This document shows, piece by piece, positions 1 to 24,073 of a DNA stretch of 64,000 nt. The stretch spans positions 13,331-77,330 of the IMG/VR virus record IMGVR_UViG_3300037424_000723; one strand, 5' to 3'. Position 1 is the first letter of the stretch; each line of letters begins with the position of its first letter. The position numbers and the translations under genes were made by a program. Origin of the DNA: a virus. Taxonomy: Duplodnaviria; Caudoviricetes. A model generated the notes under the pieces. That model was not told the origin of the DNA, ran no database searches, and worked only from the letters and a program-made list of their open reading frames with translations.

Positions 1-324
1 TATCTCGACAATCGTATGTATCTGGGTTATATCCTGCTTAGTCCGGTCTAGCCATTGTTTAAGATGATAAGCTTGATGGATTAAATTAGTACAGCTTGCA
101 TATCCATTCCCGGAATGAAGTGTATCACGACTAAATCCATCCCACCTAACTGGCATCATCCACTTATTCCAGTCTGTAGCCAATTCGTTATACTCAGGTG
201 TGACATGTGGCGCATTGCCGACAAACATAGTCGCCTGGATCGTTGACCACTGTAGGAAGTTATCTAGGCTTTCATTAGCGAGATGCGCTCTGAGTGATTG
301 CCGGTAATTATCCCAATTTGTCAT
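1..324 (-). CDS. Putative sugar O-methyltransferase, paralog of 6985..7779; C-terminal part cut off by the window edge
   Basis: Not in the ORF track. Manual translation from ATG at 324 gives MTNWDNYRQSLRAHL...NFLQWSTIQATM...TNLIHQAYHLKQWLDRTKQDITQIHTIVEI, open to base 1. It aligns with MNLIHQAYHIQQWEQASGKRINQLDTIVEFGGG of the 7 kb gene. Confidence 0.8.
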   Translation of the reverse strand, partial: MTNWDNYRQSLRAHLANESLDNFLQWSTIQATMFVGNAPHVTPEYNELATDWNKWMMPVRWDGFSRDTLHSGNGYASCTNLIHQAYHLKQWLDRTKQDITQIHTIVEI

Positions 325-1024
325 TATATCCTAATTTCTCCATCATCCATCCAAATTCATTCCAAATTTGCTCATTCATTGCAGGCGTAAAATAATTGCG
401 CCAGTTACCGACAATGCCAGTATGTATATTTTGCCGGCGTAGTTCGGCTTCATTGTCACCTATTTCAGCCTTACGAGTAGCAAAGGATTGACGTTTGATC
501 GCCTGAATAAGCCTGTTATCTTCATACTGTACATCAATTCGTCTCAAGGCGCGTTGGATCCAAAATTGAGGGTAATCTAATAATCGCTCATAGGTCATTA
601 TGGTCATTCTACGATTGCCCAGATAATACCACTTCTCGCAATATTCATCCCACCGACCACAGCCGGCCACGTCACCCCGTATCATTCGCTCTAAAAACAC
701 CTCATTGCTTACCTGCCAATGATACGCCCCGCTTACGCAGATAGCACGCGGGTCACGCACCAAAAAGATTATTTTTTCATCGGTTAATTGTTTCCAGGCT
801 AATTGATGCGCTTGCGGCACAAGCGCCCCCGCATCATCGTCTATTAAAGTGAAATGCCCGCGCCGAATAAGGTAAGGCCCAGGGCGCTTCCTGGTTACAA
901 TCCCAATCTCTGCCGGGGTAGATTCAATTGTAGATGAATTGAGCGCGTCACCCAATAGATTAGTAAGCCAAGTTGAGCCACTTTTGGGATAGGCGCTTAT
1001 TATGATCTCAGGTTTTGGCTTAAT
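308..1024 (-). CDS. PAPS-dependent sulfotransferase
   Basis: The frame extends upstream of the track start (955) to include SAYPKSGSTW (5'-PSB loop). It also has RDPRAICVS (3'-phosphate motif) and C-terminal TGIVGNWRNYFT. The start codon is uncertain (ATT at 1024). Confidence 0.85.
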   Translation of the reverse strand: MKPKPEIIISAYPKSGSTWLTNLLGDALNSSTIESTPAEIGIVTRKRPGPYLIRRGHFTLIDDDAGALVPQAHQLAWKQLTDEKIIFLVRDPRAICVSGAYHWQVSNEVFLERMIRGDVAGCGRWDEYCEKWYYLGNRRMTIMTYERLLDYPQFWIQRALRRIDVQYEDNRLIQAIKRQSFATRKAEIGDNEAELRRQNIHTGIVGNWRNYFTPAMNEQIWNEFGWMMEKLGYNDKLG

Positions 1025-1035
1025 TGTTCACAACC

Positions 1036-1338
1036 TTATATTTTATCGTCAACATATATATTAGCCTCATCTTTATGCACCCATTGATAACCCGCAAATG
1101 TAGCCCACTCTAATTGCATCCTAATTTCTAATGGCGTATCGGGATTTGTCATCAACTCAAATACTTCTCTGGATGCGATATGAGTACGCCTATATTCCCA
1201 ATCGGGACTTTTCATCTTTTCTTCTTCATCTTTGGCATGTTTTATCATCTGCTCTTGTATACGCCGAAATGTATCAATAAGACTAGGCGGTTCTTTATTT
1301 GAATCATAATCAAAGTTCACAAGAGTAGTGTCATCCAT
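1036..1338 (-). CDS. Hypothetical protein
   Basis: 100-aa ORF translationally coupled to its neighbours. Confidence 0.6.
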   Translation of the reverse strand: MDDTTLVNFDYDSNKEPPSLIDTFRRIQEQMIKHAKDEEEKMKSPDWEYRRTHIASREVFELMTNPDTPLEIRMQLEWATFAGYQWVHKDEANIYVDDKI

Positions 1339-2035
1339 TGGAATAATCCTCTTTTAATCGCCTCAATCCATCCTCAGTAATCACAAAGCTGATTAAGGTA
1401 TCAACGTGCAAAGCTACCTCGAAATAAGGGCACAGGAATTTACGCACCGCCCTATCTACACCCGGCCAGGGTAACGGGTGCATAACCTTACCAGTTAGTT
1501 GACCACTGGCATACACCCGCTTCTTATCAAAGTCGTGTACTGCCATAATGCCACCGGGTTTAATGTTGGGCAACCAGGCCAGTATGTCACCTTTTGCGCC
1601 TCGGTAGGAATGTGAGCCATCTATGAATACCATATCCACTAAATGTTTGTTTTGACCCCAAAGTCTAACCTCAAAATCAAACAATGGGGGTTTTTGCCAC
1701 ATCAAACCAATAGCTTTGCTATCACCCTGCATTTGAAAAAAACGATTATTACTGTATAGCCTTGTTTCTGGAAATGCCTTGTTGATTATTCTTTGTTCGG
1801 CTACTAAACAGCCAAATGGGCTATCATCTCTTTGTATATCAATAGTCCATAGTTTCAAATCCGGTCTACTCTCCATAAATGCCAGTCCGCTAGTGCCCGC
1901 GCCCGCGCCTAAATTTATAACCGTAGGATTATCAGGGAGTAACTTTGCTAGTTCCTTCAATGATCTTAATTCATTTTCTGTTAAGTACCCAAAAGCTTGC
2001 TGTAAAGTGTCTGATGAATGTATCATTTGTGCCAT
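1331..2035 (-). CDS. Class I SAM-dependent methyltransferase (Methyltransf_24-like)
   Basis: VINLGAGAGTSG motif I and VDMVFIDGSHSY...NIKPGGIMAVHD. Confidence 0.85.
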   Translation of the reverse strand: MAQMIHSSDTLQQAFGYLTENELRSLKELAKLLPDNPTVINLGAGAGTSGLAFMESRPDLKLWTIDIQRDDSPFGCLVAEQRIINKAFPETRLYSNNRFFQMQGDSKAIGLMWQKPPLFDFEVRLWGQNKHLVDMVFIDGSHSYRGAKGDILAWLPNIKPGGIMAVHDFDKKRVYASGQLTGKVMHPLPWPGVDRAVRKFLCPYFEVALHVDTLISFVITEDGLRRLKEDYSNG

Positions 2036-2077
2036 CGGTTCATTTGTGATATACTATAAAAAGGAGATAAAGTAAAT

Positions 2078-2623
2078 ATGGAAGAAATTTGGAGAGATAT
2101 TATTGAATATGAAGGACTATACCAAGTATCGAATCTAGGCAATGTAAAAAGTATTGTTGGCATTAGAATAGATAGTAGAAGTAGAATATACAAGTTACCT
2201 CTAAAGGTACTTAAATCACAGTACGATAGATATGGTTATCTTCATGTTAGTTTATATAGACAGAAAAAGGTTAAGCATAAATTGATACATCGTTTGGTAC
2301 TTGAGGCATTTATTGGTAATTGTCCTAAAGGAAACTATGCTAATCACAAAGACGGCAATCGAGCGAATAATAAATTAAATAACCTTGAATGGTGTACTCC
2401 AAGTGAAAACAACTTACATGCCTTTAGAGTATTAAATAGAAAACCAGTTTATGTATGTGGTATAAAAAACGCCAATGCCAAATTAACTGATGATAAAATA
2501 CGATATGCAAAAGAACTAAGACAAAAAGGATTTACCTTCCAGAAAATAGCAGATGAACTAGGCATTGCAAAGTCACACGCTAAACGAATAATTGATGGTA
2601 AGTCTTGGGGGCATATTTTATAA
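2078..2623 (+). CDS. NUMOD4-HNH homing endonuclease with C-terminal HTH, inserted antisense into the glycan operon
   Basis: WRDIIEYEGLYQVSNLGNVKS (NUMOD4) and IHRLVLEAF...NHKDGNRANNKLNNLEW (HNH). AT-rich, with its own AAGGAG RBS. Confidence 0.92.
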   Translation: MEEIWRDIIEYEGLYQVSNLGNVKSIVGIRIDSRSRIYKLPLKVLKSQYDRYGYLHVSLYRQKKVKHKLIHRLVLEAFIGNCPKGNYANHKDGNRANNKLNNLEWCTPSENNLHAFRVLNRKPVYVCGIKNANAKLTDDKIRYAKELRQKGFTFQKIADELGIAKSHAKRIIDGKSWGHIL

Positions 2624-2718
2624 TCTGGCAACATCTGAACAAGCTGTTTTAACGTTGCTAATTCAGCCTCGGTAAGATAGCCAAAAGCGGCTTGTAAATC
2701 AGCACTAGTTTGAGGCAT
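2620..2718 (-). pseudogene. Orphaned 5' remnant of the methyltransferase gene (about 33 codons)
   Basis: MPQTSADLQAAFGYLTEAELATLKQLVQMLPD matches MAQMIHSSDTLQQAFGYLTENELRSLKELAKLLPD of 1331..2035. Confidence 0.75.
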
Positions 2719-3829
2719 AAAACTCCCTCACCTTATCGCAAATAAAACTGACATTATCATCTGTCAACCCACAGTGAAGCGGTAGCAATAGCGTCTCGCG
2801 CGCCGCCCGTTCTGCATTGGGTAAGCTATCGGGTAGATTGTAGGCCCAATGTAGGGGGTAATAGCGGAAGGTGCAATAAATCGAGTTGGCCTTGAGATAA
2901 GCGGCTAATTCATCACGCTTGGGGGTTTGTATCCAGTAGAAGTAAAGCGATGTTCTTTTATTTGTTCCCCAAAGCCATATGTCCGGTTGCTTTATCTGGT
3001 TCATATTCTCAAATTGATTACGATAATGAGCGCAAATATCACGCCGTCTTTCGATAAATTGGGGCAACTTCTTCAACTGTTCTAACCCCATTGCCGCTGC
3101 TATGTCATTCATCACTGACCGTCTAGCCCCGGCAATGTCTACCCCAAATTCCCACCACCTATCCTTGTTGCTATTTAGCCCGCTTGCTTCACTTGTGCCT
3201 AGATAAATCTGCTTTCTAGCTCTAGTGGCTAACTCAGTATCCTTAAGCCACAGCATGCCACCGTCGCCAGTGCTGATGATCTTCATCGCATCAAATGACC
3301 ATACGCCAATGTCACCAAACGTGCCAACCGCTTGACCGTTGAAAGTCGAGGCCGGCGCATTGGCCGCATCCTCTATTAAGCGTATGCCGGGATGATAGCT
3401 CAGCAGGCTAGTTATCTCTGCCATACCACAAGGTACACCGCCATAATGATTGAGGATAAGCGCCTTAGTTTTGTTGGTTATCTTTGCCTGAATATGATCT
3501 GCCGTTACGTTTAACGTCCTGCTATTCACGTCGCAAAATACCGGAGTAGCCCCGGCTGCTATCACCGCTTGAGCTGCCCCCACAAAATGAATAGTCGGGA
3601 TAATCACCTCATCACCCGGCCCAATGCCTAATAATGCTACCGCTTGAAATAGCGCCTCAGTACAAGAGTTGATTGAGACAACATTAGCCGGGTTAGAGCC
3701 GATATGCGAGGCCCATGCCGCTTCAAATTCGTCAACCTTTGGGCCTTTGCCAATCCAGCCAGATTGAAAGCTATCGGCAATAGCCAGGAGTTCATCTTGT
3801 CCAGGCGAAGGAGAGAAAACAGGTATCAT
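2705..3829 (-). CDS. DegT/DnrJ/EryC1/StrS PLP-dependent sugar aminotransferase
   Basis: SINSCTEAL, LIEDAANA, and SFDAMKIISTGDGG with the catalytic Lys present. Confidence 0.93.
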   Translation of the reverse strand: MIPVFSPSPGQDELLAIADSFQSGWIGKGPKVDEFEAAWASHIGSNPANVVSINSCTEALFQAVALLGIGPGDEVIIPTIHFVGAAQAVIAAGATPVFCDVNSRTLNVTADHIQAKITNKTKALILNHYGGVPCGMAEITSLLSYHPGIRLIEDAANAPASTFNGQAVGTFGDIGVWSFDAMKIISTGDGGMLWLKDTELATRARKQIYLGTSEASGLNSNKDRWWEFGVDIAGARRSVMNDIAAAMGLEQLKKLPQFIERRRDICAHYRNQFENMNQIKQPDIWLWGTNKRTSLYFYWIQTPKRDELAAYLKANSIYCTFRYYPLHWAYNLPDSLPNAERAARETLLLPLHCGLTDDNVSFICDKVREFYASN

Positions 3830-4182
3830 CTCACTTGGTCTCTAATTTCTATTGGCACATCTAATAACCAATTGAGTAAATCAATCAACTCTGCCATATG
3901 AGTTACCTTTTTCTCATAGATTGATAATTGCTCAGGTTTTAGATTGTCAAAATCAAATTTACCACCCAATTCATCACTTATCTTTTCATTCATAACCTCT
4001 GCTATCCAAGAGGGGCGTAAGCAATAAAGTATATCTATGTCTGTTAAGTTTTGGTCATCAATAACGATATGAGCAAACGAATATCCAGTAGTCCAATCCC
4101 ATTTAGTTATTTCATCTATTGCCTTTGTAACATCTTCAACCGTAGCCAATTCTGGCTTGGAACGTTGAAAAAGGTTGCTCAT
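3826..4182 (-). CDS. Hypothetical protein
   Basis: 118-aa ORF with ATGA-type overlaps. Confidence 0.6.
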   Translation of the reverse strand: MSNLFQRSKPELATVEDVTKAIDEITKWDWTTGYSFAHIVIDDQNLTDIDILYCLRPSWIAEVMNEKISDELGGKFDFDNLKPEQLSIYEKKVTHMAELIDLLNWLLDVPIEIRDQVR

Positions 4183-5024
4183 TCAAACTCCCTCAACACA
4201 TTCAAGTATAGCCAATCCTCAGTAATGGCATAATCCTTTACGGTTAGTAGGTTCATGTAAATAGCCGGTAATTGTTTAACCCATTGTCCCGCCGATAACC
4301 CACCGAGTATCTTTTGTAACCTATCTACCGTATCAAATTGCAAGATACCTGCTGGCTCAAAGAACCTATGGATATTAGGCGCTCCCCAGAATATGGGTAT
4401 TGTGCCAAGCGCAAAGCAGTCGAGTAACCATTCGGTAAACAGGTTATCTTCTCTACACGTTTCAATTGCTAGGCTAAAGCAGTAATCGCCCAGGAGTAGC
4501 TTTTTAACGTCCTGCCCATAACCTACCTTTTGCCCGCCTATACCATAAATATCAACATTGTAACCCTGTTCTTTAATCATCTCGGCTATTTCGTGGCGTA
4601 TCCTGTGGCCTTCGGTAGTCATCTTGTTACCGATGAGCATAGAGCAGAGTTTGGTTTTGGGTTTGATACCCCAGTCGGATTTATCAATCCAAGTACCACC
4701 GTAGGGGCAAAACTTAAACTTACTATCAAATTCCCACAAATCAGTAATAGTCTTATAAGTTAAAATCAAATCAAATTTATCTCTATTGAATAACACATTG
4801 TGATATGTCTCAGGGTGCAAACAATAAGGCTCATGTAACCACCCGATTTTATACCGACTTTGCACCCTATCCACTATAGGGTTGTTGATCCATTCATCAG
4901 TGAAGATTGTCACGCCATCAAATGCGGATAAATCTCTAACCCATTGGATATATTGCGAGGTTTGATATGCTGTTGAAAAGCTATCGTGCCGGAAATTATC
5001 GTCAAACAAGTTACACAGCATCAT
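4179..5024 (-). CDS. GT10-like (alpha-1,3-fucosyltransferase-family) glycosyltransferase
   Basis: YCFSLAIETCREDNLFTEWLLDCFALGTIPIFWGAPNI resembles the GT10 GDP-sugar-binding motif. Confidence 0.75.
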   Translation of the reverse strand: MMLCNLFDDNFRHDSFSTAYQTSQYIQWVRDLSAFDGVTIFTDEWINNPIVDRVQSRYKIGWLHEPYCLHPETYHNVLFNRDKFDLILTYKTITDLWEFDSKFKFCPYGGTWIDKSDWGIKPKTKLCSMLIGNKMTTEGHRIRHEIAEMIKEQGYNVDIYGIGGQKVGYGQDVKKLLLGDYCFSLAIETCREDNLFTEWLLDCFALGTIPIFWGAPNIHRFFEPAGILQFDTVDRLQKILGGLSAGQWVKQLPAIYMNLLTVKDYAITEDWLYLNVLREFE

Positions 5025-5307
5025 TAACCCTATTCAAGGTCAATCCATTAAATGTTAAGCTATCCATGCCGTTTGGATCATCCAAAACCACAAACGATGC
5101 CCCATTACGATAAGTATTATTGGCTGGTAGTCTTAAAATCAATCCAATCCTACCGCTAGGGAGAAATATTGTACCAATACTAAGCTCAATAAAATTATTT
5201 GAATTGACAATAGCATTAAATCCATCTGGATTAAACTTTATAATTAAAGTTTCTTCGGGCTGTACCTCTATGGATACAATTTTGTTATCTGTTATAATTT
5301 TAGACAT
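5011..5307 (-). CDS. Hypothetical protein
   Basis: 98-aa coupled ORF, AT-rich. Confidence 0.55.
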   Translation of the reverse strand: MSKIITDNKIVSIEVQPEETLIIKFNPDGFNAIVNSNNFIELSIGTIFLPSGRIGLILRLPANNTYRNGASFVVLDDPNGMDSLTFNGLTLNRVNDAV

Positions 5308-5554
5308 TATGCCTCAACCTCTTTTTACTCCGCTTACCCTTTTCAATTTGCCTGTCCAATGAGTGATACATAGCCACCAAAAGCCCTAGCATCATTGTTT
5401 TAGTGGTACTCTCCTGCTGGTGCATTTCGTAGACAAAGCGGTATAGCTCTGGGTTAGCTGCTGCCATTTGCATGAACAGTTTGTCACTACCCTGCATGGC
5501 ATCTTCACCTACCTCGCGGATTGTTTCAATCGTTACAACGGGCAAGTTAGTCAT
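5300..5554 (-). CDS. Hypothetical protein
   Basis: ORF with probable start ATG at 5554 (MTNLPVV...), overlapping the stop of the TadE-like gene. Confidence 0.55.
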   Translation of the reverse strand: MTNLPVVTIETIREVGEDAMQGSDKLFMQMAAANPELYRFVYEMHQQESTTKTMMLGLLVAMYHSLDRQIEKGKRSKKRLRHNV

Positions 5555-6422
5555 TCCGCGTCTCCTGTATTTTTCTAAAACTAGCACGGCTGTACAAAAT
5601 AACCGGGTCAGTCCACAAATTGCTAATCCCCGGGAACCCCAATAATTGACGCTGGCTGAACCAAAGCTCTACCGTGATTGTGTTATTTGGCCGGGGTACA
5701 TTCCCCGCCGCTATCACATCACAACTATGCTTTTGTTGCAGCCGGCCCAGTTCGGCACCCATCAGTGCATAATTCAACTGGGTTTGGACCGCTGCCGTGG
5801 CCGGGAAAGTCCATGTAAAAGTGGGTACTTCCAGGGGAGTCGTGATCGTAAAGGGCAAAGTGCAGGCCGATTCAGCTTCGATATAGCTGATTATCATGGC
5901 CCCGGTTGCCTCGTTGTAATCTATCTGACTTGATATGCTTTCAAGGGTATGCGTCCAGACGCTTTGATAATTGGGGTTAGATGAGCGAAAGTCCAAGTAA
6001 TTCTGCCTAACTGCAAAACGAGCCGCTTCTCTACTGGCATTGGTGAGGATTAGGTAAGCGCGTAAAACCCAACCTAGCTCTAAAACCCCAATAAGCAGGA
6101 ATACGATAATTGAGAATATTAGAGCGCTTTCGACAAGTGCTTGGCCACTCGGTTGAAATGGGGGAGGCTTGGGACGTGGGTTTTTTGCCTCATATTGCGT
6201 ATCGTATTCAGCTTCAAACTTTTCAAGCGCAATGGCATAATCATCACTTGACTTTTGTTCCCATTTCCTATTGGCCTTATCAAATGCCGCCCATTCTTCC
6301 ATGTGTACCGGACAAGCCCAAAGCATAAAGCCAAATCCTACCCGATAACCTTCATTAGCAATTCTTATATTGTTACATCCTAAAGTACAGCAGCGTCGTT
6401 TCACAACTTTATCCTGTCGCAC
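5547..6422 (-). CDS. TadE-like minor pilin domain fused behind a Cys-containing N-terminal extension
   Basis: SGQALVESALIFSIIVFLLIGVLELG...LTNASREAARFA is a TadE prepilin signature, located about 92 residues into the ORF. Confidence 0.75.
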   Translation of the reverse strand: MRQDKVVKRRCCTLGCNNIRIANEGYRVGFGFMLWACPVHMEEWAAFDKANRKWEQKSSDDYAIALEKFEAEYDTQYEAKNPRPKPPPFQPSGQALVESALIFSIIVFLLIGVLELGWVLRAYLILTNASREAARFAVRQNYLDFRSSNPNYQSVWTHTLESISSQIDYNEATGAMIISYIEAESACTLPFTITTPLEVPTFTWTFPATAAVQTQLNYALMGAELGRLQQKHSCDVIAAGNVPRPNNTITVELWFSQRQLLGFPGISNLWTDPVILYSRASFRKIQETRND

Positions 6423-6790
6423 AAATCCAGCCTTAGTATGATTAGTTTGGGCTTAGGCGTACTGGCAGTAAATTCTACTGCCTCCTTTACTTTTCTTGTT
6501 TCTATAGAGTATTCACCAATAATTACAGTGATATTATAAATTGGCTTGTTTTCATCTGGATTACCATTTTCATCTAATTCGTATCTCAAAACAGGGTTAG
6601 CCAAGATATATGCTGTACCTTCATATTCAAATACTTTTATATCTTGTTCAGTAAAGGTAACAAGGGTCTTACACATCCGATTTTTAATTCGTTCGATAGA
6701 AGTTCGTATCTCGGAGGTATAATTCTCAGGCTCAATCAATCGCTCTGTCACAATAACCCCACCAAATGAAGATGCCAGAATAGCCACCAA
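6401..6790 (-). CDS. Hypothetical protein
   Basis: ORF track; the true start may be a downstream GTG. Confidence 0.5.
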   Translation of the reverse strand: MVAILASSFGGVIVTERLIEPENYTSEIRTSIERIKNRMCKTLVTFTEQDIKVFEYEGTAYILANPVLRYELDENGNPDENKPIYNITVIIGEYSIETRKVKEAVEFTASTPKPKLIILRLDLCDRIKL

Positions 6791-6984
6791 ATAACCGGAG
6801 TACCCAAAAGCGCAATGACAACACCATACCAGCCGCGCCGGTCAGCCTCGTTTAATTCAGCTTCTTTATATTTGTAATGGTCTGCAACGGATTCAGTTAT
6901 GATGTGCTGTGGCATTTTGCTTAGCCTTCATTTTACCCTTACGCCATCCCATATAAAACGCATCGAGAATTAGTCTGAGTAGTT

Positions 6985-7779
6985 TTACCATCCGATTGAG
7001 TACCAATTCTGCAAATCGGGAAGATGGCCTAACTCGATATGTTGCCAATTAAAGTCTTTTGCCATAGATGTTGCCATAGCAAACTGCTTAAACCATTCGA
7101 CATTATTCCACTGTTCCCATTGCCCACTATAAAGAAAAAGATAGCTATTAGCCCGTACTATCAAAGCATCTCGCTTACTTGGCTCAACTTCACTCAAGCT
7201 ATACAGCGCCATGAGCAAGTCAACGTCTTTCGGCTTGCGCTTGGGATTCCAACTCACCTTATCAAGCAATCCAAACTGTGATAAGTAATACTCTTGCAAC
7301 AGGCTAAATTCCGGCAAGTCGTAAATGATATACTTGCCACCAAAACCTAGCCGGTGACACAACAAGGCCATTGCCCCGTAGCCACCGCCAAACTCAACAA
7401 TGGTATCAAGTTGGTTAATGCGCTTGCCGCTTGCCTGTTCCCATTGTTGAATGTGATAAGCCTGGTGGATAAGGTTCATTGAAAACTGAGTGCTAAAATT
7501 AGACGTTGAGAAATAATCATCTGGGCCAAAATGTGGCACCAAAACAGGGTTGTGATACCCCTCGGTTAGTTGGCTAAATTCGTATTGTATCGCTTGTGTC
7601 CAGTGATTAACTAGCATCGTATGGTACACGCAGGACCATTCCCAAAACCGCTTAGGGTTATCGCCGTTTGTAACATGCTGCCATAGGTTAAGTCGCCAGG
7701 CGTCCCAAAACGGGGGCTTAAGTGTTGTCTCTGGTTTAGGCAGTTGCGACATACGATAGGCGAATTGGTTAGCGTCCAT
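6985..7779 (-). CDS. Putative sugar O-methyltransferase (TIGR04371-like)
   Basis: TIVEFGGGYGAMALL...YIIYDLPEFSLLQEYYL. Start placed at the ATG overlapping the upstream stop. Confidence 0.75.
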   Translation of the reverse strand: MDANQFAYRMSQLPKPETTLKPPFWDAWRLNLWQHVTNGDNPKRFWEWSCVYHTMLVNHWTQAIQYEFSQLTEGYHNPVLVPHFGPDDYFSTSNFSTQFSMNLIHQAYHIQQWEQASGKRINQLDTIVEFGGGYGAMALLCHRLGFGGKYIIYDLPEFSLLQEYYLSQFGLLDKVSWNPKRKPKDVDLLMALYSLSEVEPSKRDALIVRANSYLFLYSGQWEQWNNVEWFKQFAMATSMAKDFNWQHIELGHLPDLQNWYSIGW

Positions 7780-8917
7780 TATAATACTCTCTAACCGACT
7801 GAATAACATAATCTAAATCATCTTGGGTTAAGTCCTGATGCAAGCCCCAATATACCCCGTGATTATTCATAGACTTAGCTCTGGGATAATCAGCCTCGTT
7901 AAATAATCCTTTATAAACCGGCTGATTAGTTAATGGTACTGTGTCTCTAACCCCTATGCCTTTTTGGGTTAGATAGTCCATTAACCCTTGCTTAGGTTCT
8001 GTCATGGTGGCAATGGGAAACATCATGGGCGTAAATGATACATTAGGCCGAACTTGAGGCAATCTAATTTTATCTAGTCCTGATAGCTTATCTATAAAAT
8101 ATTGATGATTAAATTGGCGCTTGGTTTTAATGTCTTGCCAGTTATCTAATTGAGCCAACCCCAAAGCGGATTCAAGTTCTGTTATTCTCAGGCTATGGCC
8201 GATTGAATCAAAGACAAAATACCTCGATAGCATCATTGGGTCAAACTCATCGCTTGCAGACAAGTGCTTATAGGACAGGCCGTGATTTGAGAGACTTCTA
8301 AGCATAATGGCATAATCACGGTTGTTAGTAAGCGATATACCTCCCACGCCAGTTGTGATGATATGGGCCATATAAAACGAATGACAACCTATGCCATCCC
8401 AAGAGCTAATAGACTTGTTCTCCTGAGTAGCAAAAGCCGCTTCGCAACTATCCTCTATGATTTTTAGATTGTACTTGTCTGCTATCGCCTTAATAGTTGT
8501 CATATCGCACGGTTGCCCGAATAAATGAACCGGCATAATAGCTCTGGTTTTAGGGGTTATGGCCCGTTCTATTAAATCGGGGTCAATACAATAGGTACCA
8601 TCTATATCCACCAAAACAGGTTTAAGGCGATTTTGAATAATGGTATTTACGCTGGCTACAAAGGTTAAAGCAGGACACAATACCTCATCTCCCTTTTGCC
8701 AGCCGTGTACCTTTTTAAGCGTTTGCAGGGCAACGAGTAATGAGCTAGTGCCACTGTTTGACAGCACTCCATACTCACAGCCATGCATGGCGGCAAAGCG
8801 CTTCTCAAACTCCTGAGAAAGAGGCCCATAAGAAATTCTGCCTGAGCGTAGCACCTGATTTACCAGGTTAAACATTTCGGGGGTTGCGTTGAATGTGCCA
8901 AGCGTGACTTGTCTCAT
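7769..8917 (-). CDS. DegT-fold PLP/PMP enzyme with His replacing the catalytic Lys; ColD/E1-like 3-dehydratase
   Basis: SNSGTSSLL, IIEDSCEA and SFYMAHIITTGVGG, compared with SFDAMKIISTGDGG in the paralog. The E1-type Cys cluster is absent. Confidence 0.8.
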   Translation of the reverse strand: MRQVTLGTFNATPEMFNLVNQVLRSGRISYGPLSQEFEKRFAAMHGCEYGVLSNSGTSSLLVALQTLKKVHGWQKGDEVLCPALTFVASVNTIIQNRLKPVLVDIDGTYCIDPDLIERAITPKTRAIMPVHLFGQPCDMTTIKAIADKYNLKIIEDSCEAAFATQENKSISSWDGIGCHSFYMAHIITTGVGGISLTNNRDYAIMLRSLSNHGLSYKHLSASDEFDPMMLSRYFVFDSIGHSLRITELESALGLAQLDNWQDIKTKRQFNHQYFIDKLSGLDKIRLPQVRPNVSFTPMMFPIATMTEPKQGLMDYLTQKGIGVRDTVPLTNQPVYKGLFNEADYPRAKSMNNHGVYWGLHQDLTQDDLDYVIQSVREYYNGR

Positions 8918-9639
8918 CGTAGATACCCCAACTCTTTCAACTCCGCTAAATCACCAGGGGCAAGCGATGGCAGGCCGGTCATCACATCCTGATTCCAATC
9001 ACCCCTTTGAATGACGTTTGCGTGTTTAAGTGGCGCTTGACGTGTGCCCAGCACAAGCAATTCATCACCATACTGACTTAACCGGCTTGTACCATTTAGC
9101 TCTATTTGCTGTGCTGTCTCTCCGAATACCAATACCTTTTTGAGTAAATCACGCCGCCACAATCCACTCCATAAGCTCATATGATAAGGTGAGCCGTGAT
9201 CGGATTTAATCAAATCAAGATAGCCCAGTGTATCATAGGTGTGATAGCCGAATAAATACTTGCCCCCGCCATCGGCAAAGAGACGGTCAGTTGTTACGTC
9301 AAACTTAACCACGTAACGGAATTGGCCCATATAATCATAACACATCTTGATAGCATTGGTATCAACTTGCCGGGTAAGCAGGTAGTCATCTAACAGCAGT
9401 AAGAATACCTCATCGGCTACATTGTTGAGTACCTTGATGAGCGCATCACTCCAGCGTTGGGCCGGGTAATCATCCTGATTGCCAATGGAGTAAAAGTTGA
9501 AATAGGGGAGTTTAGGGTCAGTATAGCCGCAGACTAAAACAGGAGCATCATAAGCCGGTTGAAAATACTTGTGCCATTGGTGAGCAAAGGCCGGCAAGCA
9601 ATGACTGCCCTTATCGGAGGTTATGACTATGGTTTGCAT
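8914..9639 (-). CDS. Putative GT-A-fold glycosyltransferase
   Basis: RWSDALIKVL...VFLLLLDDYLLTRQVD (DXD-like), SLWSGLWRRDLL, and glycan-cluster context. Confidence 0.55.
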   Translation of the reverse strand: MQTIVITSDKGSHCLPAFAHQWHKYFQPAYDAPVLVCGYTDPKLPYFNFYSIGNQDDYPAQRWSDALIKVLNNVADEVFLLLLDDYLLTRQVDTNAIKMCYDYMGQFRYVVKFDVTTDRLFADGGGKYLFGYHTYDTLGYLDLIKSDHGSPYHMSLWSGLWRRDLLKKVLVFGETAQQIELNGTSRLSQYGDELLVLGTRQAPLKHANVIQRGDWNQDVMTGLPSLAPGDLAELKELGYLR

Positions 9640-10214
9640 ACCACCTCGCCAAAAACAAAAGCCCCGCAGTTACAAGGTTCACTCGTTGCGGGGTTAGGGT
9701 TATTCCAATGATGTCGGTTATTACAAAGTTGAGTTGAATCAGTTCTGTAAAAGAGTTGATGTGTAGTACGGATTTGATCTAGTATTTTAATGATATAACT
9801 ATTCGTAGAGATATTGTTGCCTTTTGCTTCTCTCTCAAGCCAAAACATTAAATTATCTGGAAGACGTATTGACATAGCCCTATAGGTTACAGCTCTTTTA
9901 CGTTGCCCAGTATTTCCACCCTGGCCGCCATCAGTAAAGTTAGTTAAATTGTGGCTATTCTCTCTGTAAAAAGCAATCCATTTCTTTTCGGCTTCTACCC
10001 AATTATCAGAATTAACTTCTTCTAAGATTTCTAATCTTGGACATTTCCCTTGTCTGATTAATGATTGCACCCATCGGCTTTTGTGGCTTTGTTTATTATG
10101 ATACCCGCAAATATGGCTCTTGTATCGCATGTGGGGATTGTCGGATTTACCAACGTATCTAACTTCGTTGGTATCTGGACATATTAAAGCATAGATAAAT
10201 GTTCTTTCACTCAA
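9627..10214 (-). CDS. GIY-YIG endonuclease with an Arc/RHH-like C-terminal segment
   Basis: FIYALICP...VRYVGKSDNPHMRYKSH, EKKWI, LTN; followed by MSIRLPDNLMFWLEREAKGNNISTNSYI. Confidence 0.85.
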   Translation of the reverse strand: MSERTFIYALICPDTNEVRYVGKSDNPHMRYKSHICGYHNKQSHKSRWVQSLIRQGKCPRLEILEEVNSDNWVEAEKKWIAFYRENSHNLTNFTDGGQGGNTGQRKRAVTYRAMSIRLPDNLMFWLEREAKGNNISTNSYIIKILDQIRTTHQLFYRTDSTQLCNNRHHWNNPNPATSEPCNCGAFVFGEVVCKP

Positions 10215-10366: not shown

Positions 10367-10395
10367 ATTATACATCTTTTTACTTTTCACGTCAA
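10367..10395 (-). promoter_or_regulatory. Sigma70-type promoter facing the glycan cluster
   Basis: TTGACG-17 nt-TATAAT on the minus strand. Confidence 0.8.
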
Positions 10396-10401
10396 CCCAA
10401 C

Positions 10402-10432
10402 AAAAAAGAGGCTGATAATCTCAGCCTCTTTT
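10402..10432. terminator. Intrinsic terminator after the major capsid gene
   Basis: AAAAAAGAGGCTGA-taatc-TCAGCCTCTTTT. Confidence 0.85.
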
Positions 10433-10450: not shown

Positions 10451-11938
10451 TTACGATTCCCAAACCGCCTGTAAGTTCTGAGCGGGCCGGGTTGAAACCC
10501 CTCCATTTACGAGGTACGGAGACGATGCCGTTGACCCTCGCAGGTGTTGCAGCGGGCTGTACAGAATGTTGTCAATTCGTCCTGCTAATGCCGGAGTACG
10601 CAGTACAATGCGCCGCTCTGTTTTAGCACTCAACTTGGTACACCATTTGATAATCGGGTCAAGCGCCCAGCTAAATGAGCCGCCGTCAGTCCACCACGTT
10701 TGATGGCCCATTAGCGCCTGAATCTGTTGCATCCCGATGCGATAATCCTTGTACTCAAGATAAGTGACCGGGAAACCGCCGTTGATTGTCAGCGGAACCA
10801 TATAGATACTACCCGCATAACTGCCTGCCGGGATGTTAGCATTATCACCGTTGACTTGCTCGTTGACGCCATCGTCAACGATAACCGGGTAAATGCGTCC
10901 ATTGATGGCAACCGTCATTTGCTGGCGCATCGCATCCATATCCTCGCGCATGGAGCGCCCGTCAAGATTGAGCCGGGTATTACCAACGGTCAGCAGTTCA
11001 GCGCCTCTATTGGTATTGTAGGCAATGGGCCAGGCCGCCGTAAATTCTGCCCACAAGTTGGGATTCATTACCACTACCCATTCAACCGGGTCAAGGCCCA
11101 TTCGAGTAGCATTAAAACGCAGGTAGTATTCCAACATTGACAGATACCAGACGATATTGGGGGTATTGTTGGCATTATTGCTAAACAGCGATTGGTAGTT
11201 ATAGTTTTTTACATCACTATCAGCTGCTGGGCAGGCTGTACCTGATTGGGCGTCAATAATGCCGGTGGTGATCTGGCTATCAAGGCCGGGGTACTCTTTG
11301 TAACCGCCGCCCGCCGTATTGTTAGCAGGGGAACCTTGCCAGTTTTGCTCAGTCAAGCCCATCTGATTAGTTGAGCCACGTGCCATTAACATACCGACTT
11401 TGACCATCTCGGAGTAGTAGACAATCCATTCCATTTGTTGCGCCGATAAGTCACGGGGGTAGTCAGCTTCACTCAAGCCGAGTAAGCGCCCGCGCAGGCG
11501 TAGATCGGTATTGACGCCAGCGTTAAGTGTAGTAAAGATTTGGTCAAATTCAATCGTGGCTGTATCGAACTGTAACCGGCCCAGTTGGAAGAACAGGTTA
11601 CACGCCTTGAGATAGCCGGTGGGGGCATCGCTACAGGGATTAGCAACCGCCGCCGCCCCGTCATCCTGAATACCAGTGATTAAACCGAGTACAGGCTGTT
11701 CAATGATCGTCGGGAACATATGCCCACGTCGGGCTAATTCACCTGAGATGCCATCGGGCCGGACATAGGTGCTGATGATATTGGCATCAAGGCCGAATAC
11801 GGCGAATAGGCCAGTATCACCAAACAGGAGTTGAGCCGTGTTGGTAGTGGCGGCTGTTTTTTCGTGAGTACCTTTAACCTGAGTGAACGCCTGGTACATT
11901 GCCAGGAACTCTTGAAACTCTTTCGTATTCATGTCCAT
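10451..11938 (-). CDS. Major capsid protein
   Basis: 495 aa, directly after the protease/scaffold gene and followed by a strong terminator. Synteny-based call. Confidence 0.7.
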   Translation of the reverse strand: MDMNTKEFQEFLAMYQAFTQVKGTHEKTAATTNTAQLLFGDTGLFAVFGLDANIISTYVRPDGISGELARRGHMFPTIIEQPVLGLITGIQDDGAAAVANPCSDAPTGYLKACNLFFQLGRLQFDTATIEFDQIFTTLNAGVNTDLRLRGRLLGLSEADYPRDLSAQQMEWIVYYSEMVKVGMLMARGSTNQMGLTEQNWQGSPANNTAGGGYKEYPGLDSQITTGIIDAQSGTACPAADSDVKNYNYQSLFSNNANNTPNIVWYLSMLEYYLRFNATRMGLDPVEWVVVMNPNLWAEFTAAWPIAYNTNRGAELLTVGNTRLNLDGRSMREDMDAMRQQMTVAINGRIYPVIVDDGVNEQVNGDNANIPAGSYAGSIYMVPLTINGGFPVTYLEYKDYRIGMQQIQALMGHQTWWTDGGSFSWALDPIIKWCTKLSAKTERRIVLRTPALAGRIDNILYSPLQHLRGSTASSPYLVNGGVSTRPAQNLQAVWES

Positions 11939-13422
11939 TATCGCACCACCCCGCGCTGGTCATACCACGCTTGATTGACGTTGACAAACTGCTCAGCAAA
12001 CCCAGCGCCAAGTTGAGGCTCAGGCTTAGTTTCCTTTGGCCCGTCCTTTGCCTCTGCCGTGCGCCCGTCTACCTTTGCTTCTGGTTTGCCAACTACTGAC
12101 ATTGATTTGAGAAGGGCCACAAGGTCATAGCTCTCTTCTTCCTTTTCCTCGACTACCGGCTTTGTTTCCAGCGCCTTAAGGCGAGTGTCAACCGCTACAA
12201 ACATTTCCTTGATGGCATCGGTGAAACTTGCCAGGTCTTTGACCGTCAACGCCTGGGTTGCTTCCTTCTTTTCAATGCCGGCTTCATCGGCCTCTTTAGC
12301 CTTATCAGCCAAAGTTGCCTCAATCTGTTGGACTTTATCCTCTCCAAATGCTTTGACAAATTCATCACGTTTGTGAGCAGGTAAGCCCTTTTCTACTTCG
12401 CTCATACTGGACTCCTTGTGAATAATGCTAAATGCTAATTTATTGGCCGCTGCCCACAAAGGCAGAAACGTTATTTCTTTGGTTCTGTGACGAATGATAA
12501 TTGTCGGGTCGGCCTCATCCCGCTTAATCCATTCGTTTGGCATACCGTGCGAATTTTTATCCCACCCGGCTTTGACAATGCCCTCTGCTGCCCACTCCAT
12601 ACCAGGGTAGAAATGCCCAGCCGCCACAGGGAAGCCGGTGCTTTCATCAAAAGCGTGATAATCGGTAATACCCACTGCGTAAGGCACGTGCCACAGCCAC
12701 GCTTCCGGCATGTCCCACTCGCCTTTGTGCAAAGCTTCATCAAACTCTTTGTGGGATTCCGTGCTGATAATTTCAGGGGGGTTGTCACTGTCACGCCGGT
12801 TATTGGAGTATGCCGCAAGCCATCTATAGATATCGCCCTCTTTCCAGATATACAGCGATTGCGTATCAGGTTGATTGCCACTATCCCCGCCGGGGTTGTC
12901 CTGCTGTTTAACGGGTTGATTGTCGCCTGCTATCTGTTTAATAAGCGTTGCCGCTTTATCCTCGGTCATTTCCTCTTGAATACGAGTGCCAACTAAGGCC
13001 GCGTATTCATTAGCCAGGGCCACCAAAGCGCCGGCCTTGTCATCAGTATCGCTGTTCATAATGTTGCGTGACAAGCGCCCAAATTGATCGGTAAGCTCAT
13101 ACATCTCGTATTGCGCTTCGCGGGCTGCCTGTTCTGCCGCCAAGTCAGCAAAGGAGAGAGGGCCATGATCCATACCGTCAACCATTACAACGGGAACAGG
13201 ATCGCCATAGTAGTCTTTGGTGGTTTCCTCCGTTACCGCCTCGTCCTCGATTAAGTCCAGTTCCTTTTTGGGCTTATTTTCATTAGCCATTAAAGCAGCA
13301 ATTTGCCTTTGAGCCGCTTTATCATCAGGGTGTAATCCCAATCGCTTGCCTACTTTCTTTTTATCAGGGCCAACTTTATAGACAGCAACCTTACCATCTT
13401 CAGGGAATTTACCGTATGGCAT
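11938..13422 (-). CDS. Prohead protease / scaffold protein
   Basis: Protease-like core (RWLAAYSNNRRD...EIISTESH...LWHVP...KEITFLP) with a long charged C-terminal scaffold; sits before the capsid gene. Confidence 0.65.
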   Translation of the reverse strand: MPYGKFPEDGKVAVYKVGPDKKKVGKRLGLHPDDKAAQRQIAALMANENKPKKELDLIEDEAVTEETTKDYYGDPVPVVMVDGMDHGPLSFADLAAEQAAREAQYEMYELTDQFGRLSRNIMNSDTDDKAGALVALANEYAALVGTRIQEEMTEDKAATLIKQIAGDNQPVKQQDNPGGDSGNQPDTQSLYIWKEGDIYRWLAAYSNNRRDSDNPPEIISTESHKEFDEALHKGEWDMPEAWLWHVPYAVGITDYHAFDESTGFPVAAGHFYPGMEWAAEGIVKAGWDKNSHGMPNEWIKRDEADPTIIIRHRTKEITFLPLWAAANKLAFSIIHKESSMSEVEKGLPAHKRDEFVKAFGEDKVQQIEATLADKAKEADEAGIEKKEATQALTVKDLASFTDAIKEMFVAVDTRLKALETKPVVEEKEEESYDLVALLKSMSVVGKPEAKVDGRTAEAKDGPKETKPEPQLGAGFAEQFVNVNQAWYDQRGVVR

Positions 13423-13446
13423 CGTTTTAATCCTTTGCCGGGAAAC

Positions 13447-13480
13447 AAAAAACCAATTATGAAAAACCCATAATTGGTTT
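13447..13480 (-). terminator. Terminator-like hairpin just upstream of the protease gene
   Basis: AAACCAATTATG-loop-CATAATTGGTTT, followed by a U-run on the minus strand. Confidence 0.65.
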
Positions 13481-13636
13481 GAATAAATAAGTTATTTAAT
13501 TGTGAGTGGCCTTGACCCCAACTAACCTGACCAGGGGGTGCTACGAAATGTCAGGCTTGCCCCGGCTACCACACCACTCTTGGCCGGCCTAGAATGATTA
13601 TGATAGATTTGACTCTATCGTAATCTATTGCTAATG

Positions 13637-13665
13637 ATTATATGCGAAGTTGTACACTATGTCAA
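13637..13665 (-). promoter_or_regulatory. Consensus sigma70 promoter with an inverted repeat over the -35
   Basis: TTGACA-17-TATAAT; GTACACT...AGTGTAC brackets the -35. Confidence 0.8.
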
Positions 13666-13674
13666 TAGAGTGTA

Positions 13675-13899
13675 CTAAAGTGACGAATATAACTCCAATA
13701 ACGTCTTAGCCCTTGCGCCTGGCTCGACATTGCTACTCTCTACAATCCACGTTAAGGGGTTGCCCTCACAATCTACCAATAGTGAGACGCTAATGGCTAC
13801 TACCGCTTGCGCCTGTGTCCCATTCAGGTGTTGATTTTTCAACCGTTGCCCTGTTTCAAGTCGTATGCGGTTTACCAGTTTATCCCACTCGGTTATCAC
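13675..13899 (-). CDS. Hypothetical protein
   Basis: 74-aa coupled ORF. Confidence 0.55.
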   Translation of the reverse strand: MITEWDKLVNRIRLETGQRLKNQHLNGTQAQAVVAISVSLLVDCEGNPLTWIVESSNVEPGARAKTLLELYSSL

Positions 13900-14513
13900 T
13901 TTTTCTTTTTACCCTTACCACAGCCACCCGGCCCACGTAAGGCCGGAGGTCTACCCTTTGTTATTGGCAAATCGGTTGGCTTGCGTTGACACTTGCAATG
14001 ACCACCGAAGCACGCTAATTTTGGAGATTGGGTCTCGATGCCATACTTAGCCCATATCGAATTTCGATATACCCGCCCATTCATACGAAGGCAGTCACAG
14101 CAGTGCTCACCCCCGTCAATTATCCACAATTCCTTGAGGTCTTTACAGGCCATCTCACGTGCTATCGTTTCAATGTAAGTATAGCGGGCAATCCACTCTT
14201 GCGCCCTTGCTTTAATCATCTCGAATGGTGCGCCGGATGCCTTATTATGGGCTACAATCCATTCAATATACCGCCCGACATACTGATAGTTGTCACCAAT
14301 GAGCCGGGTAAGTTCGGCGCTCTCTTCCTCGGTGCGCTCATCTGCCTTGATTCCACAAGCCTTTTGACCCTCAGTAAAAGCCTGTTCGTATCCCCGGCCT
14401 ACTGCGCTGAATAGGGCATCAGCACCCTCGAATGAGGTTAGAGTGCCGGTATACACGCCCCGGCTTAGAGCCATAACTGAGGCTCGAAAGGTAGAGAGCG
14501 ATTTATCTAACAA
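13896..14513 (-). CDS. Head morphogenesis protein (Mu gpF/SPP1 gp7-like)
   Basis: EHCCDCLRMNG and ACFGGHCKC Cys/His motifs; located after the portal gene. Confidence 0.7.
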   Translation of the reverse strand: MLDKSLSTFRASVMALSRGVYTGTLTSFEGADALFSAVGRGYEQAFTEGQKACGIKADERTEEESAELTRLIGDNYQYVGRYIEWIVAHNKASGAPFEMIKARAQEWIARYTYIETIAREMACKDLKELWIIDGGEHCCDCLRMNGRVYRNSIWAKYGIETQSPKLACFGGHCKCQRKPTDLPITKGRPPALRGPGGCGKGKKKK

Positions 14514-14706
14514 TGCCCACCTTGCGTATCAATCCAGTATAAGGTGTAAGGGTCAAACCACCACCGAATCCAGTAAGCTTCATAGCCAAAAATAACCCCC
14601 CAATAACTGACAATTGGGTTAAATGGTAACTTCCATCTAGTCCAGTGATGATCGGTATAACCAAAGTTTGGGTAAGGATGCTCCTTATCCTGCTTAAGTT
14701 TATCCA

Positions 14707-14883
14707 CTAGCGATTAAGAAACGTGATAACTTGCTCTGCCCCAGCGAGTAGAAAAGCCAACATACCAGCAAAGAACATTAACCGGCCTACCTCTGCCCAC
14801 ATTGCACCACGTGGACTTGGGGTATTGATAATGTATAGTATCAATCCACCAACCAATACGAGTACGGGTAATAAAACTACCAT
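14707..14883 (-). CDS. Small two-TM membrane protein (moron-like) between portal and head genes
   Basis: AAGGAGGA RBS before ATG 14883; two hydrophobic segments. Confidence 0.55.
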   Translation of the reverse strand: MVVLLPVLVLVGGLILYIINTPSPRGAMWAEVGRLMFFAGMLAFLLAGAEQVITFLNR

Positions 14884-14972
14884 TGCAAAATCCTCCTTAT
14901 GATAACTCTGATAACGCTTCAATCATAGCTCTACGGGCTAGGTTTACACCATGCCAATACTTTTAATAGGCG

Positions 14973-16697: not shown

Positions 16698-16700
16698 TGT

Positions 16701-17939: not shown

Positions 17940-18402
17940 CGTGAATAATCTTAATTATAAAGGGGCTGTCAGATGTACCAGTTTCAGTACCTAGCAACTT
18001 GTGATGTTTGGCTAACCGTTCAAGGTTGACATCTGCCGGGTAAAGTTCGAGTTCTATTTCCTCATACCGGTTTTCGTTTTTGTCGTAAGTAACTTTGCGC
18101 TTGAACTTTTTGATTACTTGGGCTTTATCACCCAATTCAGCTAAATCGGAATCTGATTGAATATGAGCAAAGTCAGCAATGTTAGACCGGGCCATATTAG
18201 CCAAGCGTAAAATAGTCTCATCGGCTGACATTTTTAGCGAGGCTATTCTATTAGCTATATAAACACTGATACTAGGATTTACAAGGTTTTTAGGCCCTTC
18301 AACATTAGGATAGGCGTACCCGGCCCGCCTTGCTGCCTCTGTTGCGTTCCAGCAAGTTAAATAGTTTTCAATAAATACCTGCTGCTTGTTACTTAATGCC
18401 AT
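17902..18402 (-). CDS. terS: Terminase small subunit
   Basis: LSNKQQVFIENYLTCWNATEAARRAGY...NLVNPSI. Confidence 0.92.
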   Translation of the reverse strand: MALSNKQQVFIENYLTCWNATEAARRAGYAYPNVEGPKNLVNPSISVYIANRIASLKMSADETILRLANMARSNIADFAHIQSDSDLAELGDKAQVIKKFKRKVTYDKNENRYEEIELELYPADVNLERLAKHHKLLGTETGTSDSPFIIKIIHDDTGDGTPSAST

Positions 18403-23704: not shown

Positions 23705-24073
23705 TCATTCCTCCCCCAATAACTTTTCTACCAACTGTATCATGTACATCGCTGAATAGGGCTTTTTTATGAATGTAGTAGCACAAGCCCGCAGTACATC
23801 GCTGATGGCCTGACTATCGGCTACACCAGATAAAACGATAATCGGTAAGGTTGGGTTACTTTGTCGCAAAACAACACAAACTTCCTCTCCCGTTATCTCA
23901 CTCTTACCCAGATCATAATCCAGGATTACCAGCGCCGGCGGAGTTGTCATAGCTGCCTCAATAGCCACCTCGCCAGTATGGGCCAGGACAATGTTATGAT
24001 TGAGTTGCCCCAAAGTGGCCTTTAGAACCTCTGCCACTTGCACCATGTCATCAACGATTAAAATAGTATTCAT
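23705..24073 (-). CDS. Single-domain response regulator (CheY-like receiver)
   Basis: ILIVDD, LVILDYDL (phospho-Asp), PIIVLSG and FIKKPY. Confidence 0.92.
   Translation of the reverse strand: MNTILIVDDMVQVAEVLKATLGQLNHNIVLAHTGEVAIEAAMTTPPALVILDYDLGKSEITGEEVCVVLRQSNPTLPIIVLSGVADSQAISDVLRACATTFIKKPYSAMYMIQLVEKLLGEE

Follow-up and report, generated by a model that had tools for sequence, protein, structure and literature searches.

What does a phage do with a run of sugar-modifying enzymes encoded directly behind its major capsid gene? The question is raised by IMG/VR virus record IMGVR_UViG_3300037424_000723, of which we analysed a 64,000-nucleotide window (bases 13331-77330 of the 77,330-bp record). 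Positions given here are window positions unless prefixed by L002, the locus to the left of window base 1, or by another contig label; L003 is a 97% sister contig. Our results suggest that the genes form a phage-encoded virion glycosylation island, the products of which probably, though by no means certainly, modify virion proteins in the cytoplasm rather than host-surface or DNA targets. The argument starts from gene identities, folds, catalytic residues, closure of the genome and family-wide synteny, all of which are observed; that a glycan is made at all, on which acceptor (capsid, tail or host surface), from which donor nucleotides and in what order of steps, is what we infer from them.

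An initial annotation of the window, made from its letters alone, had listed a series of sugar-related enzymes on the capsid strand behind the capsid gene. All of them were recovered on the minus strand by Pfam and NCBIfam searches or a fold model, and the cluster does run past the left edge of the window, as that annotation had supposed. The second O-methyltransferase (MT) gene crosses this edge, and glycosyltransferase (GT) genes and a small membrane protein gene follow beyond it:

10451-11938, minus strand: major capsid protein, 495 aa, HK97 fold as judged from an AlphaFold2 (AF2) model and Foldseek
8914-9639, minus strand: GT-A-fold glycosyltransferase-like protein leading the island, 241 aa (AF2 predicted local distance difference test score, pLDDT, 87)
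7769-8917, minus strand: His-type DegT protein, a ColD-like, pyridoxamine 5'-phosphate (PMP)-dependent sugar 3-dehydratase (PF01041, E 2.9e-87)
6985-7809, minus strand: sugar O-methyltransferase-like protein, 274 aa (TIGR04371, 'putative sugar O-methyltransferase', E 5e-9, below the cut-off; weak Methyltransf_2 match)
4179-5024, minus strand: GT10-like (fucosyltransferase-like) glycosyltransferase (PF00852, 33 bits against a cut-off of 23.9)
2705-3829, minus strand: Lys-type DegT sugar aminotransferase, TlmJ/perosamine-synthase-like (PF01041, E 4e-83)
1331-2035, minus strand: Methyltransf_24 (MT24) S-adenosylmethionine (SAM)-dependent methyltransferase (PF13578, E 1.6e-10)
308-1024, minus strand: sulfotransferase of the 3'-phosphoadenosine 5'-phosphosulfate (PAPS) type, 238 aa from an ATT at 1024 or 215 aa from a TTG at 955 (PF00685, E 9.6e-18)
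1-324 plus 417 nt left of the window, minus strand: second sugar O-methyltransferase-like gene, 246 aa, its 5' part in the window (TIGR04371, E 1e-8)
L002:11196-12203: GT4 glycosyltransferase, continuing the island
L002:8717-10702: double GT2 glycosyltransferase (GT2-GT2), 661 aa, continuing the island
L002, after the double GT2: DUF1360 small membrane protein

The island belongs to a closed genome. The ends of the record overlap by 127 bp, and removing the overlap leaves a 77,203-bp circle in which an 883-aa tape-measure-like open reading frame (ORF), the N-terminal part of which matches tape-measure PHROGs, runs unbroken across the junction; the overlap and this spanning ORF are the grounds on which we regard the genome as closed. 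CheckV puts the completeness of the record at only 63%, a low figure that is probably due to this phage family having no reference genomes. On the circular map the island, of about 14 kb, has the capsid gene on one side and the genes for connector, neck and tail on the other, all on one strand. This is the placement between head and tail genes that the initial annotation had projected, with a connector-like gene, a phrog_1645 gene and the tape measure on the left. The same annotation had allowed that the DNA left of base 1 might be host chromosome; phage genes were found there instead. In principle, an assembly chimera or a prophage flank carrying a host polysaccharide locus could give such a cluster, and both the CheckV figure and the slightly lower G+C of the island (0.41-0.44, as opposed to 0.48 in the head genes) could be read in that way. 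Such an origin is extremely improbable, since the circle closes with an ORF across its junction, phage structural genes lie on both sides of the island, and the same layout is seen in 20 independent contigs from many samples. Because of this closure and synteny we treat it as excluded.

The comparison with relatives gives strong support. We examined 5 Logan/JGI and 25 IMG/VR contigs collected by an alignment query of the capsid family, and counted the 20 distinct ones, with capsid identities of 37-60%, in which 5 kb or more of sequence is available past the capsid gene. Glycan genes lie downstream of the capsid gene in 20/20, and the neighbourhood that the initial annotation proposed to look for in related phages thus recurs in every relative with enough sequence. 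GT-A and GT4 genes are each present in 17/20 relatives, the double GT2 in 15/20 and DUF1360 in 12/20; the His-type DegT gene follows with 10/20, the sugar O-methyltransferase with 9/20, MT24 with 8/20, GT10 with 7/20, sulfotransferase orthologs with 6/20 and the Lys-type DegT gene with 2/20. The GT-A ortholog begins 87-320 bp past the capsid gene in 11 of the 17 distinct contigs that have it (12 rows, L007 and L031 being one contig), and the larger gaps elsewhere contain insertions. In some relatives a single protein of about 1,000 aa combines GT4 with the double GT2. Pfam also detects glycan genes in the three contigs that gave no BLAST matches: L015 a sulfotransferase, a GT2, a TOD1-like protein, a GFO/IDH/MocA oxidoreductase and a DegT protein behind a TnpB insertion; L028 a GT2 and a deacetylase-like gene; and L005 a sulfotransferase, GT2, DegT, GT4 and GT2-GT2. 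A conserved core (GT-A, GT4, GT2-GT2) with a swappable tailoring set, always at the same position within the structural operon, is a hallmark of this family. The tailoring genes are patchy, as one would expect if diversifying selection acts on a surface structure. Five contigs with the capsid family that had been binned into metagenome-assembled genomes bear discordant labels, namely Anaerolineales, Desulfuromonadales, Gammaproteobacteria, Starkeya and Herpetosiphonaceae.

The gene to which the island is tied is, by its model, that of the major capsid protein. The AF2 model built from 33 homologs (pLDDT 76) matches the HK97-fold capsids Sf14, PhiTE, SU10, P23-45 and HK97 with a Foldseek probability of 1.0 and E 6e-10. 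No Pfam or PHROG match was found for the 495-aa protein itself; its more than 900 homologs are all uncultured, with no Pfam family on any of them, and tblastn against 50,697 phage records returned no homolog. The GT-A-fold protein behind it has no Pfam, PHROG or NCBIfam match. Its model aligns with GnT-I (1fo9) at a VIA Z of 14.0 and a root-mean-square deviation of 3.8 A over 188 residues (Foldseek probability 1.0), with B4GALNT1 at Z 13.1 and with POMGNT1 at Z 12.7; the range of Z 11-13 includes TarP and TarS, and nucleotidyltransferases of the same fold also reach Z 9-10. The protein has a DXD-type acidic motif after strand 4, LLDDY, in which D85 is invariant across 33 aligned homologs, and a profile search gathered 1,912 cluster representatives. 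In the same 50,697 records, tblastn gave no match to the GT-A protein and only two weak, non-actinophage matches to GT2-GT2, these being the two proteins searched.

Between the capsid and GT-A genes lie the following features:

10402-10432, minus strand: intrinsic terminator right after the capsid stop codon, with a 12-bp G+C-rich stem, a 5-nt loop and a U-tract
10367-10395, minus strand: sigma-70-like promoter, TTGACG-17-TATAAT, 11/12, a consensus match only
9627-10214, minus strand: GIY-YIG homing endonuclease (Pfam GIY-YIG, E 7e-7)

The initial annotation had noted that a terminator and a sigma70 promoter divide the island from the capsid gene, and this observation stands: both are genuine consensus features that are kept in L003, where the terminator stem is the same, the loop differs and the -35 box of the promoter is retained. 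The leader at the terminator folds with a z of -5.6. A 50-aa ORF follows the promoter, ahead of the GIY-YIG gene, which is missing from the corresponding site in L003.

The two transferases to the left of the window bring in a rival to virion glycosylation. In NCBIfam and PHROG, GT4 and GT2-GT2 fall close to exopolysaccharide, teichuronic-acid and GtrB-like enzymes, and the island could in principle remodel the host envelope: soluble transferases would act on lipid-linked O-antigen, capsule or S-layer intermediates, a host flippase and ligase would export the product, and superinfection, or the sticking of progeny to debris, would be blocked. The GT2 and GT4 enzymes of surface polysaccharides are typically peripheral and soluble, the island has its own promoter after the capsid terminator, and two small membrane proteins (DUF1360 and a TadE-like protein) are encoded in it or at its end. 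Several observations argue in the other direction. The genome has no integrase or resolvase (Phage_integrase, Resolvase; tyrosine or serine recombinase), and the island is part of the structural operon instead of belonging to a moron or a lysogeny region, a position held across capsid divergence to 37%. A hydrophobicity scan of all ORFs found no polytopic membrane protein and hence no flippase, polymerase, priming phosphoglycosyltransferase or GtrA/GtrC-type protein, families not searched with hidden Markov models. In that scan no island enzyme has a hydrophobic segment, and DUF1360 and the TadE-like protein alone have one. We consider envelope remodelling unlikely, although it deserves to be kept in view.

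The two DegT proteins bear on the chemistry that the island could support. The best PDB match of the His-type protein is E1 (CDP-6-deoxy-L-threo-D-glycero-4-hexulose 3-dehydrase; 3BCX), at E of only about 1e-48, and ColD (GDP-4-keto-6-deoxymannose 3-dehydratase) is matched at about 1e-31. Like both, it has a DegT fold in which His replaces the Schiff-base Lys: His185 aligns with His220 of E1, the position of the catalytic Schiff-base Lys, which the H220K mutant entry 3BB8 marks, and the catalytic His is retained in 13/13 orthologs among the relatives. It differs from them in that the phage encodes no ColC-like reductase and in that the Cys-rich insert of E1, which holds the [2Fe-2S] cluster, is gapped out of the alignment; since this insert is missing, a ColD-type, reductase-independent mechanism appears likely. 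The Lys-type protein matches TlmJ (5UID) at E 7e-110, with perosamine synthase next best; it keeps Lys183, and the Lys is retained in its orthologs. The initial annotation went further and had the phage make its own amino and dideoxy sugars. This was overstated. No NTP_transferase, short-chain dehydrogenase/reductase (SDR)/4,6-dehydratase or GDP-mannose dehydratase (PF00483, PF01370, PF16363; positive controls in 14/14 reference genomes) and no adenosine 5'-phosphosulfate (APS) kinase (PF01583) was found in the genome. A 145-aa AAA_33 kinase at 24051-24488 had been considered as an APS kinase and was dropped, PF01583 being absent. Because these nucleotidyltransferase, dehydratase and kinase steps are lacking, the phage can only tailor a nucleoside diphosphate (NDP)-4-keto-6-deoxyhexose of the host, and it would have to use host SAM and PAPS.

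A precursor shared by both DegT enzymes may be GDP-4-keto-6-deoxymannose, because enzymes of GDP-sugars are among the relatives of both (ColD, perosamine synthase, TlmJ) and because GT10 enzymes take GDP-fucose as their donor, the GT10 and Lys-type DegT genes adjoining one another here and in L010 and L023. The GT10-like protein aligns with plant FucTA (9s6a) and Helicobacter pylori FucT (2nzw) at E of about 3e-6, a match that covers residues 120-240 only, the C-terminal GDP-fucose-binding domain. Orthologs of this phage's sulfotransferase occur only in islands that also hold GT10 (6/6: L006, L010, L012, L023, L026 and L030), usually next to it, and GT10 occurs alone once, which suggests that the sugar added by GT10 is the one that is sulfated. 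In the sulfotransferase, the 3'-phosphate-binding motif RDPRAICVS and the GxxGxWRNYFT motif align with SULT structures, and the 5'-phosphosulfate-binding loop PKSGSTW is in frame, after a TGA of that frame and ahead of TTG 955, which is the first canonical start codon. The two O-methyltransferases, which the initial annotation had listed as paralogs, are 39% identical; their genes are not neighbours, the paralog being the gene that straddles the left edge.

Taken as a virion glycosylation system, the island would operate as follows. The head-to-tail operon would be transcribed late in infection, and the terminator followed by a promoter past the capsid gene would plausibly hold the enzyme dose below that of the capsid protein. 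The soluble enzymes would work in the cytoplasm, the site of capsid and tail assembly, and the core of GT-A, GT4 and double GT2 would build a glycan on exposed residues of virion proteins, the capsid protein being the prime candidate acceptor because of the ancestral adjacency of its gene to that of GT-A. A variable tailoring set would then diversify this glycan. The His-type DegT enzyme would strip the 3-OH from a host NDP-4-keto-6-deoxyhexose, probably GDP-4-keto-6-deoxymannose, to open a 3,6-dideoxy branch, and the Lys-type enzyme would draw on that pool to form a 4-amino-4,6-dideoxy sugar. A GDP-linked 6-deoxyhexose would be transferred by the GT10-like enzyme, the three SAM methyltransferases would methylate the glycan, and the sulfotransferase would add sulfate from host PAPS.

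A number of observations weigh against this scheme. The pathway is incomplete without host enzymes. A search for an acceptor tag (tripeptide enrichment, SGE, [ST]-G-x-[ST] motifs) found none enriched in the virion proteins. The terminator and sigma-70-like promoter between the capsid gene and the island mean that the island might not be expressed at the same time as the late genes, and the window stretch is present in two sediment DNA runs with no RNA run listed. Soluble, peripheral GT2 and GT4 enzymes also occur in O-antigen pathways, so that the lack of membrane proteins leaves lipid-linked host glycans possible, and about 100 residues at the GT2 N-terminus are weakly like GtrB-like PHROGs. 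Only the ATT at 1024, with AAGG ahead of it, gives a full sulfotransferase, there being no ATG, GTG or TTG upstream of PKSGSTW; either this gene uses a rare start codon or it is N-terminally crippled, to judge from its sequence. Finally, tblastn with the GT-A and GT2-GT2 proteins yields nothing from actinophages, so the analogy with Che8, one of the mycobacteriophages discussed below, is functional and not one of descent.

The missing acceptor tag also bears on another target for the enzymes, either a phage or host protein outside the virion or a small molecule such as a natural-product glycoside. The best match of the Lys-type DegT protein, TlmJ, comes from an antibiotic pathway, which would suit the latter. 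However, no scaffold-forming polyketide synthase or nonribosomal peptide synthetase genes are present among the scanned proteins, and the tight ancestral adjacency of GT-A and capsid genes, which lie about 100 bp apart in 11 distinct relatives, would be hard to explain, and we regard such a target as improbable. The transferases might instead decorate modified phage bases as a defence against restriction, as in T-even and TET-associated systems. Phage transferases can add diverse glycans to DNA, according to the account of Pyle 2024 given in PMC12619734, and the genome has a Mom-family protein and N6/N4 methylases. Yet neither a thymidylate-synthase-like hydroxymethylase (PF00303, with positive controls) nor a TET/JBP protein (PF12851) was found in the genome, and the island is far from the replication and modification genes at 26-33 kb of the window. 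DNA hypermodification is accordingly very improbable as its function. Searches for an integrase, a polytopic export protein and an enzyme for hydroxymethyl bases were all negative, and we therefore favour cytoplasmic glycosylation of virion proteins over modification of the host surface or of DNA.

Among known systems, virion glycosylation by mycobacteriophages would be the closest functional analogue. Che8, Corndog and Myrna are reported to attach glycans to their capsid and tail-tube subunits by means of phage-encoded transferases (Freeman et al. 2023, Cell Host Microbe 31:1216, as related in PMC12363180 and PMC12619734). The likeness lies in soluble phage transferases encoded among structural genes, joined in some phages by methyltransferases, for which action on capsid and tail subunits in the cytoplasm has been proposed or shown. 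In contrast, the island here is much larger, at about 14 kb, it adds a 3-dehydratase, a 4-aminotransferase, a GT10-like enzyme and a sulfotransferase, and it is the hallmark of a wholly uncultured family (0 capsid homologs in 50,697 phage records). In its chemistry, the closest analogue may be the autonomous glycosylation of giant viruses, in which PBCV-1 carries capsid N-glycans with O-methylated sugars and Mimivirus/Megavirinae fibril glycans contain viosamine and bacillosamine (PMC9614988, PMC7826918, PMC10117803). As is proposed for the phage, the transferases involved are cytoplasmic and virus-encoded, work alongside DegT aminotransferases and methyltransferases, and place rare, clade-specific sugars of a bacterial kind on virion proteins, with a gene content that varies by clade. 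Those viruses, however, infect eukaryotes and encode early steps (4,6-dehydratases and others) that this phage does without, and a comprehensive review of giant-virus glycosylation makes no mention of sulfation or of a sulfotransferase.

The seroconverting gtrABC and other O-antigen modification cassettes of temperate phages also resemble the island, in phage-borne GT2-type transferases and a weak GtrB-like PHROG similarity. They differ from it in that the island lies in a structural operon, its GT2 has no transmembrane tail, and the genome has no integrase and, by the hydrophobicity scan, no GtrA/GtrC- or Wzx/Wzy-like membrane protein. Cyanophages (the annotations of S-CAM7 and S-H68) carry DegT-family genes with 26-30% identity, some annotated as 3-dehydratases; as far as our search shows, these are isolated auxiliary genes in large genomes and not part of a capsid-adjacent multi-enzyme island. 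We regard the capsid-linked island as a probable case of phage virion glycosylation with unusual chemistry.

To our knowledge, glycosylation of virions by phage enzymes has been demonstrated experimentally in a few mycobacteriophages only, and we know of no virus particle for which 3,6-dideoxy or 4-amino sugars, O-methylation and sulfation have been reported. A bolder proposal, which we make tentatively and hold to be possible rather than probable, is that in a whole family of uncultured phages from sediments and waters the HK97 capsid bears an O-methylated and sulfated glycan of deoxy and amino sugars which differs between strains and is begun by a previously unclassified 240-aa GT-A transferase, the gene of which is tied to that of the capsid protein. 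No sulfated virion glycan built by a virus would have been known before, and the transferase would define a new protein-glycosylating family. If the reading as virion glycosylation holds, the trait would be an ancestral, family-defining and fast-diversifying trait of an abundant uncultured phage lineage, with a bearing on particle persistence, avoidance of decoys and grazers, and host recognition in sediments. The locus would also offer a compact set of soluble enzymes together with a candidate capsid-directed GT-A transferase.

Other genes in the island and in the flanking modules complete the map:

5547-6422, minus strand: TadE-like single-pass membrane protein (PF07811, E 2.6e-11, residues 93-135), with one hydrophobic segment
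6401-6790, 5300-5587, 5011-5307, 3826-4182 and 1036-1338, minus strand: interspersed small ORFs with no Pfam matches
2078-2623, plus strand: HNH/NUMOD4 homing endonuclease (Pfam NUMOD4 and HNH_3, both E of about 7e-12)
2449-2718, minus strand: remnant 89-aa ORF, the first ~32 residues of which duplicate the Methyltransf_24 N-terminus (BLASTP 46% identity, E 9e-11)
17902-18402, minus strand: TerS (PHROG terminase match)
16701-17939, minus strand: TerL (PHROG terminase match)
11938-18402, minus strand: upstream head module, with TerS, TerL and genes for a 574-aa portal-sized, a 205-aa and a 494-aa Ala/Lys/Glu-rich scaffold-like protein
55362-64000, minus strand: tail module, with the C-terminal part of the tape-measure-like protein and 146-aa, 1198-aa and 1054-aa tail-fibre genes
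L002:6661-7992, minus strand: connector-like 443-aa protein (Atlas placement near head-tail connector clusters)
L002, after the 443-aa gene: virion structural protein (phrog_1645, E 1.6e-63)
L002:3607-5109, minus strand: 500-aa protein, followed by small genes and the tape measure

The head-module gene order is kept in relatives, and the tail-fibre gene at the right end of the window matches phrog_4492 (E 2.5e-28). PHROG and Pfam give no match for the portal-sized and scaffold-like genes or for most genes of neck and tail, and phmmer against the PDB found none for the capsid, 494-aa, 443-aa and 500-aa proteins; the position and composition of the 574-aa and 494-aa genes suggest portal and scaffold roles, respectively. 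For the 443-aa protein, a function as head-tail connector is a lead only. Its gene directly follows DUF1360 in 10 relatives, and within what looks like an insertion the protein has densely clustered cysteines (CCSSCGGSGCIAC...C). The 500-aa protein, which has no Pfam, PHROG or PDB sequence match, has a C-terminal half rich in Gly, Ala and Thr, in which Asp-box/BNR-like repeats can be recognised by eye (e.g. SVDGGITW); it might be a virion protein of the beta-propeller, glycan-binding or sialidase-like kind.

For the ORF at 5547-6422, assignment as a methyltransferase is rejected in favour of a TadE-like (PF07811) membrane protein, which is probably not a sugar enzyme. This ORF, with the N-terminal motif of Flp/Tad pseudopilins, is also present in L003 (L003:12884-13492, called as 202 aa), and the version here has an additional Cys/His-rich N-terminal extension of about 90 residues. 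An ortholog of one of the small interspersed ORFs, h95, is likewise found in L003. The opposite-strand HNH gene is flanked by the Methyltransf_24 gene and the 89-aa remnant (1331-2718), an arrangement that fits insertion of the HNH gene, in the course of which a duplicate of the 5' end of Methyltransf_24 was carried in or left behind. In all, the island and neck region hold four homing-endonuclease-like genes, GIY-YIG, HNH, DUF968-like and an HNH paralog (9627-10214; 2078-2623; L002:10775-11275 and 3036-3605). In L015 a TnpB gene (OrfB_IS605 / Cas12f-like TNB; L015:11544-12992) is inserted immediately past the capsid gene. Apart from the glycan island, the window also encodes the Mom-family protein (E 1e-36) and, split by an HNH gene, two genes for N6/N4 DNA methylases, at 26395-27099 and 28280-31060.

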